Shown piece by piece: positions 9,684-63,171 of a stretch of 64,000 nucleotides of DNA (within the stretch, counting starts at the first letter, position 1; the number at the start of each line of letters is the position of its first letter). The stretch lies in NCBI RefSeq assembly GCF_003018255.1, contig NZ_CP027440.1, one strand, 5' to 3'. The notes below the pieces were generated by a model that saw only the letters and a list, made by a program, of their open reading frames with translations, searched no databases and had not been told where the DNA came from. The position numbers and the translations under genes are program-made. The stretch is from Escherichia coli (GTDB taxonomy: Bacteria > Pseudomonadota > Gammaproteobacteria > Enterobacterales > Enterobacteriaceae).

Positions 9684-10028
9684 ATGACTATCGTTCGTAT
9701 CGATGCTGAAGCCCGCTGGTCTGATGTGGTGATCCACAACAACACGCTCTACTACACTGGTGTACCGGAAAACCTCGACGCCGATGCTTTCGAGCAAACT
9801 GCCAACACGCTGGCGCAGATTGACGCCGTGCTGGAAAAACAGGGCAGCAATAAATCGAGCATTCTGGATGCCACCATTTTCCTGGCTGATAAAAACGACT
9901 TCGCGGCGATGAATAAAGCGTGGGATGCCTGGGTTGTCGCGGGTCATGCGCCGGTGCGCTGCACGGTACAAGCGGGTTTGATGAACCCGAAGTATAAAGT
10001 TGAAATTAAGATTGTGGCTGCGGTGTAA
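9684..10028 (+). CDS. yoaB: RidA/YjgF-family protein YoaB, 114 aa
   Basis: Internal ATG at 9684 of ORF 9636..10028 gives known length; RidA-like translation. Confidence 0.88.
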   Translation: MTIVRIDAEARWSDVVIHNNTLYYTGVPENLDADAFEQTANTLAQIDAVLEKQGSNKSSILDATIFLADKNDFAAMNKAWDAWVVAGHAPVRCTVQAGLMNPKYKVEIKIVAAV

Positions 10029-10449
10029 GCTTTATCGAAGCAAAATAAGTCAGACGATAATTTATCGATAATACTGGTCGGTTTTACATAAATCGACCAG
10101 AGATTAAGATATTACTGTTGATGCTCCTGCTAATTCATTATTTATTTTTATATTTTCAATTTTAGCTATAAAGCTAACTATATAAATAAACATAACCATG
10201 CCGTTGTGTTCGCCCTTCGATTAGCATCTCTGGTTTTCTTTCTTAGCTGAACAATTTGGTTATAGCGTGAGAACTGACCGTCAATTTTCTCTCTCTTACT
10301 GGATAACACACCATGAGCTGCTACCTTTAAAACACCTGAATGTCAACAGGTTAACTCGTGCCATATCGTTATAATCCCTTTGATATTAGATGCAAATTAA
10401 GGTCATATATAGCCTTATCGATAACATGGTTAATTTTAAGGATAAGAAT

Positions 10450-10749
10450 ATGCCTGCTGTAATAGATAAAGCCCTGGATTTCATTGGTGCCATGGATGTA
10501 TCAGCACCAACACCAAGTTCGATGAATGAAAGCACGGCGAAGGGAATCTTTAAATATTTAAAAGAACTGGGAGTACCCGCGAGCGCAGCCGATATTACGG
10601 CGCGAGCTGACCAGGAAGGCTGGAACCCGGGGTTCACGGAAAAAATGGTTGGATGGGCAAAAAAAATGGAGTCTGGTGAACGCATTGTGATTAAAAATCC
10701 TGAATACTTTTCAACATATATGCAGGAAGAACTAAAAGCACTGGTCTAA
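10450..10749 (+). CDS. yoaC: DUF1889 protein YoaC, 99 aa
   Basis: Internal ATG at 10450 of ORF 10390..10749; TATAAT -10 hexamer about 80 bp upstream. Confidence 0.85.
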   Translation: MPAVIDKALDFIGAMDVSAPTPSSMNESTAKGIFKYLKELGVPASAADITARADQEGWNPGFTEKMVGWAKKMESGERIVIKNPEYFSTYMQEELKALV

Positions 10750-10777
10750 GTTAAATTTATATCAGCATAAATGGGTC

Positions 10778-10815
10778 AGGACGCTTTTAATCACATATGA
10801 AAAGCGTCCTTTTTC
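10778..10815. terminator. Bidirectional intrinsic terminator between convergent yoaC and yoaH
   Basis: 11-bp perfect stem aggacgctttt / aaaagcgtcct with 11-nt loop followed by ttttct. Confidence 0.7.
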
Positions 10816-10868
10816 TCACAATCAAATAACTATCGGCTTCTATAACGAAAGCGATACGGATAAGTGTG

Positions 10869-11048
10869 TTACTCGTCTTCATCCTCAAAACGCGCCACGA
10901 TTCGCTCGCCGGAATGGTTGGCACGCAGCTCTTCTGCCACCAATGCGATTGCCTGGCCGCTGCTCATCCCTTGTGCCATCAGTTCCTGGATCCGCTCGAC
11001 GGCTTTTTGCTGCTGTTCATGGGTGAGTGAAGGTAAACCTGCAAACAT
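10869..11048 (-). CDS. yoaH: Small UPF0181 protein YoaH, 59 aa
   Basis: Minus-strand reading from ATG at 11046-11048 gives [27 protein letters not shown]...RFEDEDE and stop at 10869-10871; not in supplied ORF track because under length cut-off. Confidence 0.85.
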
Positions 11049-11121: not shown

Positions 11122-12483
11122 ATGAAGACGTTATCTCCCGCTGTGATTACTTTACCCTGGCGTCAGGACGCCGCTGAATTTTATTTCTCACGCTTAAGCC
11201 ACCTGCCGTGGGCGATGCTTTTACACTCCGGCTATGCCGATCATCCATATAGCCGCTTTGATATTGTGGTCGCCGAGCCGATTTGCACTTTAACCACTTT
11301 CGGTAAAGAAACCGTTGTTAGTGAAAACGAAAAACGCACAACGACCACTGATGACCCGCTACAAGTGCTCCAGCAGGTGCTGGATCGCGCAGACATTCGC
11401 CCAGCGCATAACGAAGATTTGCCATTTCAGGGCGGCGCGCTGGGGTTGTTTGGCTACGATCTGGGCCGCCGTTTTGAGTCACTGCCAGAAATTGCGCAGC
11501 AAGATATCGTTCTGCCGGATATGGCAGTGGGTATCTACGACTGGGCGCTGGTTGTTGACCACCAGCGTCAAACAGTTTCTTTGCTGAGTCATAATGATGT
11601 CAATGCCCGTCGGGCCTGGCTGGAAAGCCAGCAATTCTCCCCGCAGGAAGATTTCGCGCTCACTTCCGACTGGCAATCCAATATAACCCGCGAGCAGTAC
11701 GGCGAAAAATTTCGCCAGGTACAGGAATATCTGCACAGTGGTGATTGCTATCAGGTGAATCTCGCCCAGCGTTTTCATGCGACCTATTCTGGCGATGAAT
11801 GGCAGGCATTCCTTCAGCTTAATCAGGCCAACCGCGCGCCATTTAGCGCTTTTTTACGTCTTGAACAGGGTGCAATTTTAAGCCTTTCGCCAGAGCGGTT
11901 TATTCTTTGTGATAATAGTGAAATCCAGACCCGCCCGATTAAAGGCACGCTACCACGCCTGCCCGATCCTCAGGAAGATAGCAAACAAGCAGAAAAACTG
12001 GCGAACTCAGCGAAAGATCGTGCCGAAAATCTGATGATTGTCGATTTAATGCGTAATGATATCGGTCGTGTTGCCGTAGCAGGTTCGGTAAAAGTACCAG
12101 AGCTGTTCGTGGTGGAACCCTTCCCTGCCGTGCATCATCTGGTCAGCACCATAACGGCGCAACTACCAGAACAGTTACACGCCAGCGATCTGCTGCGCGC
12201 AGCTTTTCCTGGTGGCTCAATAACCGGGGCTCCGAAAGTACGGGCTATGGAAATTATCGACGAACTGGAACCGCAGCGACGTAATGCCTGGTGCGGCAGC
12301 ATTGGCTATTTGAGCTTTTGCGGCAACATGGACACCAGCATTACTATCCGCACACTGACTGCCATTAACGGACAAATTTACTGCTCTGCGGGCGGTGGAA
12401 TTGTCGCCGATAGCCAGGAAGAAGCGGAATATCAGGAAACTTTTGATAAAGTTAATAAGATATTACGCCAACTGGAGAAGTAA
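11122..12483 (+). CDS. pabB: Aminodeoxychorismate synthase component I (PabB), 453 aa
   Basis: ORF 11122..12483; chorismate-binding enzyme translation; length exact. Confidence 0.95.
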   Translation: MKTLSPAVITLPWRQDAAEFYFSRLSHLPWAMLLHSGYADHPYSRFDIVVAEPICTLTTFGKETVVSENEKRTTTTDDPLQVLQQVLDRADIRPAHNEDLPFQGGALGLFGYDLGRRFESLPEIAQQDIVLPDMAVGIYDWALVVDHQRQTVSLLSHNDVNARRAWLESQQFSPQEDFALTSDWQSNITREQYGEKFRQVQEYLHSGDCYQVNLAQRFHATYSGDEWQAFLQLNQANRAPFSAFLRLEQGAILSLSPERFILCDNSEIQTRPIKGTLPRLPDPQEDSKQAEKLANSAKDRAENLMIVDLMRNDIGRVAVAGSVKVPELFVVEPFPAVHHLVSTITAQLPEQLHASDLLRAAFPGGSITGAPKVRAMEIIDELEPQRRNAWCGSIGYLSFCGNMDTSITIRTLTAINGQIYCSAGGGIVADSQEEAEYQETFDKVNKILRQLEK

Positions 12484-21117: not shown

Positions 21118-21576
21118 ATGACAATCACGGACCTGGTACTGATTCTTTTCATCGCCGCACTCCTGGCCTTCGCGATCTACGATCAGTTCATCATGCCCCG
21201 CCGTAACGGCCCCACTCTGCTGGCAATTCCTTTGCTCCGGCGTGGTCGCATCGATAGCGTTATCTTCGTCGGATTGATTGTCATTCTTATCTATAACAAC
21301 GTCACGAATCATGGCGCGCTAATAACAACATGGTTATTAAGTGCACTGGCTCTGATGGGTTTTTATATATTCTGGATCCGCGTTCCGAAGATCATCTTTA
21401 AACAAAAAGGTTTTTTCTTCGCCAATGTCTGGATTGAATATAGCCGAATCAAAGCGATGAACTTGTCGGAAGATGGCGTGTTGGTGATGCAATTAGAACA
21501 GCGTCGGCTGTTAATCCGCGTTCGAAATATCGACGATCTGGAAAAAATTTATAAGCTTCTCGTTTCAACTCAATAA
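21118..21576 (+). CDS. yobD: UPF0266 inner-membrane protein YobD, 152 aa
   Basis: ORF 21118..21576; hydrophobic translation; SD ggagga upstream. Confidence 0.9.
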
Positions 21577-21593
21577 GTTATCAATTTAGCCAA

Positions 21594-21642
21594 AGCTATG
21601 TTTAGTGTATTTTTAATAATCAGACATAGCTTAGGCTATATT
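21594..21642. promoter_or_regulatory. Candidate MntR operator(s) upstream of mntP
   Basis: Palindromic ACATAGC-ttag-GCTATATT at 21624-21642 and half-site GCTATGTTT at 21595-21603. Confidence 0.45.
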
Positions 21643-21774
21643 ACCCCTTCCCTTATTTGTTATTTATTTTAACGTTTCATTGATATATAAATCTAAATGA
21701 AAATCGTTATCAATAAAGCAATGAAATAATATATTCCAACAGTTGTTTTATATTCTCAAAATATGTTAAGGTTG

Positions 21775-23908: not shown

Positions 23909-24532
23909 AAACAGAACTGTACCTCGTTTAACCCGAAATCTGTTATCACATACAACGTTAATTATGGCAAGCCATTTTTAAACATGTCTCGATCAGACGC
24001 ACAAATCTCGATACGTCTTCCACTTTTTTTGCACACTTATGCAACGGAATACGCGCCGATATATCATTGTGCTTAACCTTGCCAGTTCAGGCAGATACTT
24101 AAACTGACGTATTTTCTAACATAGTTCAATAAGTTCAGTTGTTCCAGGCCAGTGGGAGAAGTTATTACATAGTGCGTGCAATATCACATTTTCTGCTATG
24201 CAATGAATAAAAAGTTATATCACTTTTTCTCATAAAACAGTCAGTTAACGGCTATCGATCACCCCAAAGAGAAGTCAATCGCCAAAGGTATTGTAAATTT
24301 AAAATAAGAAAAATTGATGAATGCGCAAAAAAATCAAGAGAGAAACGTTTCGCTAATAAATAATACCACGCTTAATCACAAATCCGATGTAAACATCCTA
24401 ATAAATTAATGGGCTAAATATCTTTTTCTGATATCCCGTTACGCAAATAAATAATATGATAATTATTTGAAGTCAGACCAGAGTTTTAATTTGAAGCAGT
24501 TGCACCATGACAGTGCGTATAATCAGGATGAA

Positions 24533-61682: not shown

Positions 61683-62294
61683 TCATAACGCGGCGCGTAG
61701 GGCTTCGCGAATTAATGTTTCACTGCTGGCGTCAGGGCGAGCGATTTTGCTCACCATACGGCTTGCTTCTTGTGGTTTATAGCCCAGCGCCACCAGCGCA
61801 GCAACCGCTTCCTGTTCAGCATCGTCGGTCGCCGGGCTGGCAGGTGACGTGAGTACCAGGTCGGCGGCTGGCGTAAAGAGATCGCCATGCAAACCTTTAA
61901 ATCGGTCTTTCATTTCGACAATCAAGCGTTCGGCGGTTTTTTTGCCAATACCCGGCAGTTTCACCAGTGCCCCCACTTCTTCACGCTCAACGGCATTAAC
62001 GAACTGCTGCGCTGACATTCCGGAGAGGATCGCCAGCGCCAACTTCGGGCCGACGCCGTTGGTTTTGATCAACTCTTTGAACAACGTGCGCTCTTGTTTA
62101 TTGTTAAAACCGTACAGCAGTTGCGCGTCTTCACGCACCACAAAGTGGGTGAAAACGATCGCTTCCTGACCCGCTTCAGGGAGTTCATAAAAACAGGTCA
62201 TCGGCATATGCACTTCATAGCCTACGCCGCCCACTTCAATTAACACCAGCGGGGGTTGTTTTTCAATGATGATGCCTCTGAGTCTGCCTATCAC
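61683..62294 (-). CDS. ruvA: Holliday-junction DNA-binding protein RuvA, 203 aa, GTG start
   Basis: ORF 61683..62294 minus. Confidence 0.96.
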
Positions 62295-62343
62295 ATGACG
62301 CTCCTGCGTAATGAATCAAAGATAATGCTGTATGATAAAAAAA

Positions 62344-62363
62344 TGCTGGATAGATATCCAGCG
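62344..62363. promoter_or_regulatory. LexA (SOS) box of ruvAB promoter
   Basis: tgCTGGatagatatCCAGcg, a perfect palindrome about 50 bp upstream of ruvA start. Confidence 0.75.
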
Positions 62364-62568
62364 AAGGATGAAGAAAACTTGCGAGGTGTCCCGATGATCT
62401 GAAAAATGGCGCAGTATAATTTATTCTACAGATTATATTGGAAGCAAATATTTAAATATTACATATTCAGCGAAGAAATGTGTAATAAAAATACACATCG
62501 CGACCCCTGAAAAAATAAATTTTTTATGCTATTACGTATATTCATATCTATTTCAATGGAATGACAAC

Positions 62569-63171
62569 GTGAATATTAATTATCCTGCTGAATATGAAAT
62601 TGGTGATATCGTCTTTACATGTATAGGTGCTACCTTATTTGGTCAAATATCAGCTGCATCAAATTGCTGGAGTAATCACGTCGGGATCATTATCGGTCAT
62701 AACGGTGAAGACTTCCTGGTTGCAGAAAGCCGGGTTCCCCTTTCAACCATCACCACGCTATCTCGTTTTATTAAACGTTCGTCTAATCAACGCTATGCTA
62801 TAAAGCGATTAGACGCTGGGCTGACAGAACAACAAAAACAACGAATTGTTGAACAGGTTCCCTCCCGGCTACGCAAACTTTACCACACCGGTTTTAAATA
62901 CGAATCTTCGCGCCAGTTCTGTTCAAAATTTGTTTTTGATATTTATAAAGAAGCGCTATGTATTCCGGTGGGTGAAATAGAGACGTTTGGAGAATTGTTA
63001 AATAGCAATCCGAATGCAAAACTCACTTTCTGGAAATTCTGGTTCTTAGGTTCTATTCCGTGGGAGCGTAAAACCGTCACGCCAGCCAGTTTGTGGCATC
63101 ATCCGGGTTTGGTGTTGATTCATGCGGAGGGAGTGGAAACGCCTCAGCCGGAACTGACCGAGGCGGTATAA
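62569..63171 (+). CDS. yebB: Uncharacterized protein YebB (permuted papain-like / YiiX-type fold suspected), 200 aa
   Basis: ORF 62569..63171; preceded by very AT-rich spacer. Confidence 0.85.

Follow-up and report, generated by a model that had tools for sequence, protein, structure and literature searches.

Several described kinds of DNA resemble the region upstream of yoaC in Escherichia coli. Acquired AT-rich DNA that is silenced by H-NS, of the proU and bgl type, can be recognized at the sequence level by a high AT content, by a nucleation motif with weaker sites at its flanks, and by its restriction to a lineage (the high-affinity motif TCGATAAATT used here was taken from Lang et al., 2007). 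So-called promoter islands are AT-rich stretches with spurious promoters. Targets of LysR-type regulators combine binding in vivo with a T-N11-A box, and the box of promoters regulated by YhaJ (yqjF, ybiJ, yhaK and yhhW) is described as TCAA-N5-TTGA. Promoters of the sigma-70 type show a mapped start preceded by suitably spaced -10 and -35 elements, and intrinsic (Rho-independent) terminators join a GC-rich hairpin to a U-tract in which the RNA 3' end lies. Elements of these systems were found side by side in the spacer between yoaB and yoaC.

The analyzed window is a stretch of 64,000 nucleotides (64 kb) of an E. coli chromosome. The extent given for the spacer in the original prediction is exact, as yoaB ends at 10028 and the yoaC ATG is at 10450. 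The 421-bp sequence is 100% identical to that of strain 118UI and 96.2% identical to that of K-12; it was found in 5,411 of 5,426 complete E. coli genomes, with no RefSeq feature annotated on it. Very probably, the spacer is composite regulatory DNA and not a gene, placed as the left arm of an 840-bp low-GC block with yoaC at the yoaB/yoaH junction. This reading draws on the arrangement in Escherichia versus four other genera, the conservation map, hairpin covariation, a published RNA 3' end, published transcription starts and ChIP peaks. The coordinates of all features are collected in Table 1.

Table 1. Features of the yoaB-yoaC spacer and its surroundings (window positions; variable sites were counted in 8 diverse E. 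coli genomes; a dot stands for no strand)
Feature	Position	Strand	Variable sites per nt	Remarks
yoaA	7642-9552	-		neighboring gene
yoaB	9684-10028	+	0.046	neighboring gene, left border of spacer
Low-GC block	10029-10868	.		spacer, yoaC and terminator region; exactly between the yoaB and yoaH stop codons; MG1655 U00096.3 1,893,712-1,894,551
Spacer	10029-10449	.		421 bp, end of yoaB to ATG of yoaC; MG1655 U00096.3 1,893,712-1,894,132
Spacer, left block	10029-10103	.	0.053
H-NS motif, 8/10 match	10029-10038	-
H-NS motif, 8/10 match	10054-10063	+
H-NS high-affinity motif, exact	10059-10068	-		tCGATAAATT; only exact copy in the 64-kb window
Weak start site	10061	-		Kim et al., 2012, supplementary file 2: TSS 1891768(-), 12 reads
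-10 element TATTAT	10068-10073	-		read from sequence; precedes the 10061 start
Conserved RNA hairpin	10072-10102	+		core stem CTGGTCG 10074-10080 / CGACCAG 10094-10100
Term-seq RNA 3' end	10104	+		MG1655 U00096.3 1893787; 4 nt after hairpin stem
Spacer, middle block (AT-rich, fast-evolving core)	10104-10295	.	0.135
Predicted YhaJ box	10156-10171	-		TTATAGCTAAAATTGA in this strain; TTATAGATAAAATTGA in K-12, EHEC and UPEC
Spacer, right block	10296-10449	.	0.026
Putative yoaC -35, TGGATA	10300-10305	+		read from sequence; weak match
Putative yoaC -10, TACCTT	10322-10327	+		read from sequence; weak match
yoaC start site (A)	10334	+		Kim et al., 2012: TSS NC_000913.2 1892041(+), 21 reads, one dataset
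yoaC 5' UTR	10334-10449	+		116 nt, TSS to ATG 10450
Block accompanying yoaC in other genera	10365-10449	+		last ~85 nt; blastn and alignment, 69 species with unrelated flanks
Sub-block ATCyCTTTGATAT		+		in cross-genus block; TTGATA at 10380-10385
Sub-block GGTC(C)ATAgTATA	10401-10412	+		in cross-genus block
H-NS motif, 8/10 match	10418-10427	+
Near-invariant leader ACATGGTTAATTTTAAGGATAAGA	10424-10447	+		Shine-Dalgarno AAGGA at 10438-10442
yoaC (DUF1889, 99 aa)	10450-10749	+	0.070	gene served by the spacer
yoaH	10869-11048	-		neighboring gene
pabB	11122-12483	+		neighboring gene

The gene served by the spacer encodes a member of a family found in Enterobacteriaceae only (317 clusters among 5.8 billion proteins); the product matches Pfam PF08986 with an E-value of 1e-49. 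Solved structures (2ES9, 2JN8) have no function assigned, and YoaC is described as a protein of unknown function whose deletion makes E. coli more sensitive to boric acid. In O157, yoaC is about 2-fold up at the transition to stationary phase. An in-frame ATG at 10390 was considered as the start of yoaC and rejected, because every homologue begins at the position of ATG 10450, with MPA or MPT as the N-terminus.

The spacer is the non-coding left arm of the block that carries yoaC. The block has a GC content of 0.376, versus 0.52-0.54 in its flanks, and in Escherichia it occupies the yoaB/yoaH junction, where the two genes converge and their stop codons abut at a distance of 0-7 bp in Salmonella, Klebsiella, Citrobacter and Enterobacter. 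Scanning one genome per species for yoaC yielded 71 loci. The gene lies between yoaB and yoaH, in synteny with yoaA, yoaB, yoaH and pabB, in the Escherichia loci only; in Kluyvera, Buttiauxella, Citrobacter, Klebsiella, Raoultella, Cedecea and others it was found in unrelated contexts, so that homologues outside Escherichia, where present, sit away from the junction. The same arrangement can be read from the E. coli/K. pneumoniae ortholog table of Kim et al. (2012), in which KPN_02326 (yoaB) adjoins KPN_02327 (yoaH) and yoaC is KPN_03300. From this distribution of yoaC placement among genera, we infer that the block arrived by insertion rather than by loss elsewhere. Terminal direct or inverted repeats above chance were not found at the ends of the 840-bp block, nor was a donor or mobile-element signature. 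Plasmid or phage relatives were also sought and none was found, as the four "plasmid" matches obtained were chromosome-sized or chromosome-derived E. coli records.

The AT-richness noted in the original prediction was confirmed by a GC profile (GC content 0.333; whole window, 0.504). A composition this rich in AT is reached by only 0.2% of all 421-bp stretches, and GC content drops to 0.216 in the core at 10104-10200. The further proposal that the composition resembles H-NS-bound DNA found support on the sequence side, in the low-GC Escherichia block, in the exact copy of the high-affinity motif and in an enrichment of sites matching at 8 or more of 10 positions. The exact motif has a chance of 0.003 of occurring in 421 bp of matched composition, and 4 sites with at least 8/10 matches were observed versus 1.08 expected (p = 0.025). 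High AT content, a nucleation motif with flanking weaker sites and lineage-specific DNA were thus all found. No paper linking yoaC and H-NS was found in the literature searched. Judged from these features, binding of H-NS to the spacer is plausible. The AT-rich stretch, with the exact nucleation motif beside the hairpin, would let H-NS coat and damp the region, and H-NS recruited by this upstream arm would keep both the yoaC promoter and stray promoters low.

Conservation divides the spacer into three blocks. Compared with K-12, positions 10029-10103 and 10296-10449 are identical, and 16 SNPs fall between them, in 10104-10295. In the 8 E. coli genomes, the middle block varied at approximately the rate of yoaB third codon positions, and its evolution is nearly neutral; the right block (154 bp) was the most constrained DNA in the locus, and strong constraint is limited to these proximal ~150 bp of the spacer. 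The same three-block pattern holds between Escherichia species, with an identity of about 70% for 10104-10295. One Escherichia lineage (L004) has a deletion of ~190 nt relative to E. coli that removes most of the middle block, including the predicted YhaJ box.

A conserved RNA hairpin follows yoaB in the left block. Across 6 Escherichia species, 93% of its cells were paired (14-42% in slid controls), and 3 pairs showed compensatory changes on both sides. Its fold had a z-score of -5.3 to -5.6 relative to shuffles on the plus strand and of -3.3 on the minus strand, G-U pairs in two species fit the plus strand only, and variation within E. coli is confined to the loop. An RNA 3' end is recorded immediately behind the stem in supplementary file 1 of Adams et al. 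(2021), where it is entered twice and classed as "orphan" because it lies more than 50 nt past the ORF. Its position and strand suggest that it belongs to the yoaB mRNA, and we read the hairpin as the 3'-end or terminator hairpin of this mRNA, either a non-canonical terminator or an end-protecting structure. No U-tract follows the stem (AGAGAUUAAG), and a terminator scan did not call the hairpin, so it would be non-canonical or a processing product; a GC-rich hairpin with the 3' end inside a U-tract, as in intrinsic terminators, is not what was found here. The yoaB transcript would accordingly carry a 3' UTR of ~75 nt that ends in the conserved hairpin, where it would stop or be protected. The transcript from the weak minus-strand start at 10061 is antisense to the yoaB 3' end.

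That the spacer resembles promoter DNA, as originally proposed, is borne out by published TSS-seq data placing a yoaC start at 10334 and by ChIP data for YhaJ and YeiE upstream of yoaC. Coordinates of NC_000913.2 were obtained by adding 1881707 to window positions, a conversion checked on the yoaB TSS and on both gene starts. The hexamer TACCTT has its last base 7 nt before the start, and TGGATA lies another 16 nt upstream; these would be the -10 and -35 elements of the yoaC promoter, at the proper distance from the mapped start although both are weak. The promoter stretch 10300-10334 belongs to the right block, in which this strain and K-12 do not differ. The promoter would be compatible with use by sigma-S, to judge from a C before the -10 element, TAA after it and the ~2-fold stationary-phase rise. 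The conserved 154 bp would hold this weak promoter with its start at 10334 and the 116-nt unstructured leader.

Binding of LysR-type regulators has been reported for this region. In the YhaJ ChIP-seq tables (S3 and S4) that Connolly et al. (2019) give for EHEC and UPEC, a peak is listed 283-305 bp before the annotated start of yoaC; the predicted box is 65-66 bp away from the centre of this peak. These distances fit only with the older 119-codon annotation of yoaC (ATG 10390), which puts the peak centre near 10085-10107. The gene has been named among those regulated by YhaJ. For YeiE, ChIP-exo showed binding upstream of RNA polymerase at yoaC, and yoaC was given as an example of activation. 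In vivo binding is thus published for both regulators, and a T-N11-A box can be located at 10156-10171. In this strain the box differs from that of K-12, EHEC and UPEC because of a G/T polymorphism at 10165, and by our reading it has 3 mismatches among the 8 core positions of TCAA-N5-TTGA; an exact TCA-N7-TGA core is absent from the spacer. The box lies ~170 bp upstream of the mapped yoaC start, too far for classical LysR activation. Its regulatory weight is uncertain, since it is far upstream, matches the core poorly in this strain and has been lost from one Escherichia lineage. YhaJ would bind the AT-rich stretch and YeiE somewhere upstream of yoaC, and both would modulate yoaC expression. 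Because the box is ~170 bp from the start, they may oppose H-NS repression rather than make the classical contact at -65.

The last ~85 nt before yoaC accompany the gene in other genera. Identity over 69 species reaches at least 90% in the 15-20 nt that precede the ATG (-20 to -6), a level as high as that of the first two codon positions and well beyond that of position 3 (0.67). A TTGAtA-18-CATAGT pair occurs at a fixed position in 31 of the 69 loci, its -10 hexamer ending 41-42 nt before the ATG, and in many genera with this pair the whole gap upstream of yoaC measures only 130-180 bp. The pair is probably the ancestral yoaC promoter. The Escherichia copy of the ancestral -10 lacks the final T (CATATA, 10404-10409). 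The ~85 nt would represent a promoter and a translation-initiation region of ancestral origin that go with yoaC in every genus, and the mapped promoter would lie upstream of them in Escherichia-specific sequence. Translation of yoaC would depend on a leader that is rich in A/U, unstructured and strongly conserved, and that contains a perfect AAGGA.

Other explanations of the spacer differ widely in how well they fare. The original prediction had pointed to phased A/T tracts and curved DNA, and the spacer might accordingly be intrinsically curved, with helically phased A-tracts in an architectural role. The quoted string ttatttatttttatattttcaattttagc is indeed present at 10138-10166, the spacer is rich in A/T runs, and a wedge model (indicative only) predicts local bends at 10060-10100 and at ~10286, the only two curvature peaks. 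However, phasing did not hold up, and curvature found no clear support. Fourier power of AA/TT at periods of 10-11.5 bp was at or below that of dinucleotide-preserving shuffles, being equalled by 68% of shuffles for the whole spacer and by 96-99% for the AT-rich core; over the whole spacer and each AT-rich sub-region, 51-99% of shuffles did as well. By the same indicative model, mean predicted curvature was at the 54th percentile of the window, and the quoted tracts were nearly straight, among the straightest parts. Moreover, TA steps interrupt the A/T tracts, and the peak at 10286 falls in sequence that varies between strains. On this model-based evidence, an architectural role by curvature appears very unlikely. 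A small protein or small RNA gene hidden in the spacer is more improbable still, and we give it hardly any credence. Both strands have reading frames of 22-43 codons (one is 10104-10199 on the minus strand, MVMFIYIVSFIAKIENIKINNELAGASTVIS), and a promoter scan marked a promoter-like site on the minus strand at 10186-10159. Against this, the spacer ORFs of at least 20 codons either differ between two E. coli strains, and then only by amino-acid, stop-gain or stop-loss changes, or have lost the start codon in sister species; none has a convincing Shine-Dalgarno sequence, and the features of a small-protein gene were not found. The region is not conserved between Escherichia species, and the single RNA 3' end published for the spacer is the one behind the hairpin next to yoaB. 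YoaL and YoaM, two small proteins considered as occupants of the spacer, lie elsewhere, at yoaE and antisense to nrdAB. An Rfam search of the spacer gave no match with an E-value below 0.7; "SpR14", obtained at a permissive threshold, is simply the yoaC/yoaH terminator, and other such matches were at chance level. In a test for conserved structure, only the hairpin after yoaB covaried within Escherichia, and the yoaC leader had no consensus pairs. The claim that the spacer holds no credible ORF or RNA gene is thus upheld, the single conserved hairpin and the 116-nt leader being all that was found. A structured cis-regulatory RNA in that leader (riboswitch, thermometer or attenuator) is likewise highly unlikely, if slightly less so than a hidden gene. 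Conservation of the last ~85 nt across genera, nearly complete in the ~25 nt before the ATG, would agree with such an RNA, and a fold can be drawn for E. coli, pairing CCUUA with UAAGG and AGGUCAUAU with AUAUGCCU. A fold that sequesters the Shine-Dalgarno sequence and start codon looked attractive in E. coli, yet over 67 loci accessibility of the Shine-Dalgarno/AUG was the same as in shuffled-upstream controls, and this candidate was dropped. RNAalifold on the cross-genus leader of 50 species returned 0 consensus pairs, the minimum free energy of the yoaC 5' UTR (-21.7 kcal/mol) corresponds to z = +0.26 versus shuffles, and the Escherichia helices never vary, so that no information can be drawn from them. 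Rfam has no match for the leader, and the Term-seq data of Adams et al. (2021) contain no premature RNA 3' end inside the yoaC 5' UTR and no yoaC entry in supplementary file 3.

Two further explanations concern which part of the spacer matters for yoaC, and both leave more room. The original prediction had singled out a consensus TATAAT. The hexamer exists, at 10370-10375, 2 nt off the predicted position of about 10368-10373, but it is not the -10 of the mapped start. Counted from 10334, it occupies +37 to +42, so that it falls within the 5' UTR, beginning 36 nt after the start. It might still be the main yoaC promoter, with 10334 a minor start or an artefact, as the hexamer is perfect, is kept in 6 of 7 Escherichia sequences, and the 10334 start has only 21 reads in the Kim et al. 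(2012) data. We consider this rather unlikely, as TATAAT has neither a usable -35 nor a TG extension, was not called by the promoter scan, and occurs by chance on the plus strand in 42% of composition-matched 421-bp shuffles. Other genera have AACGAT or AATGAT at the aligned position, and the Kim et al. (2012) table lists no yoaC start near 10382. TATAAT may contribute as a putative second promoter, and further yoaC starts may arise from it or from the ancestral TTGATA-18-CATATA pair. A serious alternative, although less probable than composite regulatory DNA, is that the central 190-340 bp are functionless filler left by the insertion, that YhaJ, YeiE and H-NS bind there incidentally, as any AT-rich DNA attracts them, and that only the proximal ~150 bp matter for yoaC. 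It has to be taken seriously because the middle ~190 bp evolve neutrally and are dispensable in one lineage. The polymorphism of 10104-10295 equals the near-neutral rate, most of this segment is deleted in that lineage together with the YhaJ box, the box is degenerate in this strain, and yoaC in other genera manages with 130-290 bp upstream. Incidental binding agrees less well with reproducible YhaJ ChIP-seq peaks in two pathotypes, with the listing of yoaC among YhaJ-regulated genes, with an enrichment of H-NS-motif-like sites beyond composition, and with retention of the full-length region in ~99% of E. coli genomes. We continue to favor composite regulatory DNA. A bolder version of it, in our view unlikely, would make the ~85-nt block, above all the ~25 nt of the near-invariant leader, a dedicated cis-regulatory site for a transcription factor, a small RNA or an RNA-binding protein, and would have the Escherichia AT-rich arm recruited as an H-NS / LysR (YhaJ, YeiE) anti-silencing switch replacing the decayed ancestral promoter.

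Together, the above observations are consistent with a textbook type of AT-rich control region, of little importance beyond a tidy annotation. The spacer was largely known already, as the start site, the RNA 3' end and the regulator peaks are contained in published genome-wide tables. The additions made here are modest: spacer, yoaC and terminator form one 840-bp low-GC block at the yoaB/yoaH stop junction in Escherichia only, and the mapped yoaC promoter lies upstream of the ancestral promoter/leader block common to other genera. The locus is a small, clean example of a newly placed gene gaining local regulation, and the coordinates of its parts should be useful for anyone studying YoaC. One loose end deserves a note, namely the ~25 nearly invariant nt of leader found with yoaC in other genera as well.

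Overall, the spacer behaves like a small xenogeneic AT-rich regulatory region of the H-NS type that also has a LysR-target promoter and a hairpin at the end of a gene. Its A/T tracts are not phased, its mean curvature is ordinary in the indicative wedge model, and neither a canonical intrinsic terminator nor a structured RNA nor a small-protein gene was found in it. The likeness to H-NS-silenced AT-rich DNA of the proU and bgl type (Lang et al., 2007) lies in the low GC content (0.38 for the block, 0.22 for the core) at a place where other genera have nothing, in the exact motif flanked by weaker AT-rich sites, and in weak bidirectional promoter activity. Unlike such DNA, the yoaC block is tiny (840 bp, one gene), its occupancy by H-NS is so far predicted only, and yoaC is not fully silent, being expressed at a detectable level. 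Promoter islands share with the spacer promoter-like hexamers on both strands, a weak antisense start (10061) and a chance-level TATAAT; in contrast to them, the 421 bp of the spacer have no more than two mapped starts, and one of these belongs to a real gene downstream and is located where the spacer is most conserved.

Compared with YhaJ-regulated promoters (yqjF, ybiJ, yhaK, yhhW), yoaC likewise has a YhaJ peak in EHEC and UPEC, a T-N11-A box resembling TCAA-N5-TTGA and a place in the list of YhaJ-regulated genes. It differs from them in that the box is only half a palindrome, lies ~170 bp upstream of the start and not near -65, is degenerate in this strain, and is absent in one Escherichia lineage. 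Finally, with intrinsic terminators and 3'-end stabilising hairpins the yoaB hairpin shares a stable GC-containing stem-loop after the stop codon, compensatory substitutions and a 3' end 4 nt past the stem, whereas it differs from intrinsic terminators in having no U-tract and in not being called by the terminator scan.

The yoaC start codon lies at 10450. An in-frame ATG further upstream, which would add 10390-10449, gave a 119-codon yoaC in older annotations; that version was used by Kim 2012 and apparently also underlies the YhaJ ChIP tables. The ATG at 10390 was ruled out as the start of yoaC, as the homologues all begin at the position of 10450 and show no conservation of the added stretch. 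Immediately 5' of the start codon is a leader of about 25 nt, ACATGGTTAATTTTAAGGATAAGA (10424-10447), with at least 90% identity in 67-69 species. The comparison used window positions 10424-10447 and positions -26 to -3 upstream of yoaC in the loci L004-L074 from other genomes. The leader is conserved at the level of codon positions 1 and 2, and its identity is kept despite unrelated gene neighbourhoods of yoaC among the species compared. Neither a conserved fold nor masking of the Shine-Dalgarno sequence accounts for the identity.

Transcription features flanking yoaC and in the spacer upstream of it
Feature	Position	Strand	Remarks
Bidirectional intrinsic terminator	10753-10829; stem 10778-10788 / 10800-10810	both	Common to convergent yoaC (+) and yoaH (-)
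Weak transcription start site	10061; -10 element TATTAT 10068-10073	-	Published, 12 reads (Kim 2012)

Term-seq 3' ends were reported within the yoaC/yoaH terminator at 10814/10815 (+) and 10774 (-) (Adams et al., 2021). A weak Rfam match to "SpR14" (E = 0.74) was rejected, being merely the hairpin of this terminator. The start site within the spacer directs transcription leftward, out of the spacer and across the yoaB 3' end in antisense orientation, and was assigned to yoaA with a 509-nt leader (Kim 2012). It overlaps both the exact match to the high-affinity H-NS motif and the palindrome TTATCGATAA, of which a second copy is found at 10415-10424. AT-richness equal to that of the spacer occurs at three more sites in the window (around 21353-21773, 24075-24495 and 62256-62676), with a GC content of 0.32-0.33 per 421 bp.

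Structures of YoaC (10450-10749), described as a "putative cytoplasmic protein", have been solved (2ES9, 2JN8), and among the mutants of one screen the K-12 yoaC deletion was the most sensitive to boric acid. In nature, yoaC is dispensable, the cases being strain D72 (locus L003, 3081-3845), in which IS1A takes the place of most of the spacer and of the first 20 yoaC codons, and strain 2014C-3338 (locus L084, 812-1170), in which yoaC carries a frameshift. A match to the spacer was absent in 15 of 5,426 genomes. In Escherichia sp. MOD1-EC7003 (locus L004, 3229-3500; compared with window 10105-10295), the spacer measures just 271 bp, having neither the AT-richest core nor the predicted YhaJ box and retaining the hairpin downstream of yoaB and the proximal ~110 bp. 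This strain is a deletion mutant made by nature, suited to asking whether the AT-rich core matters.
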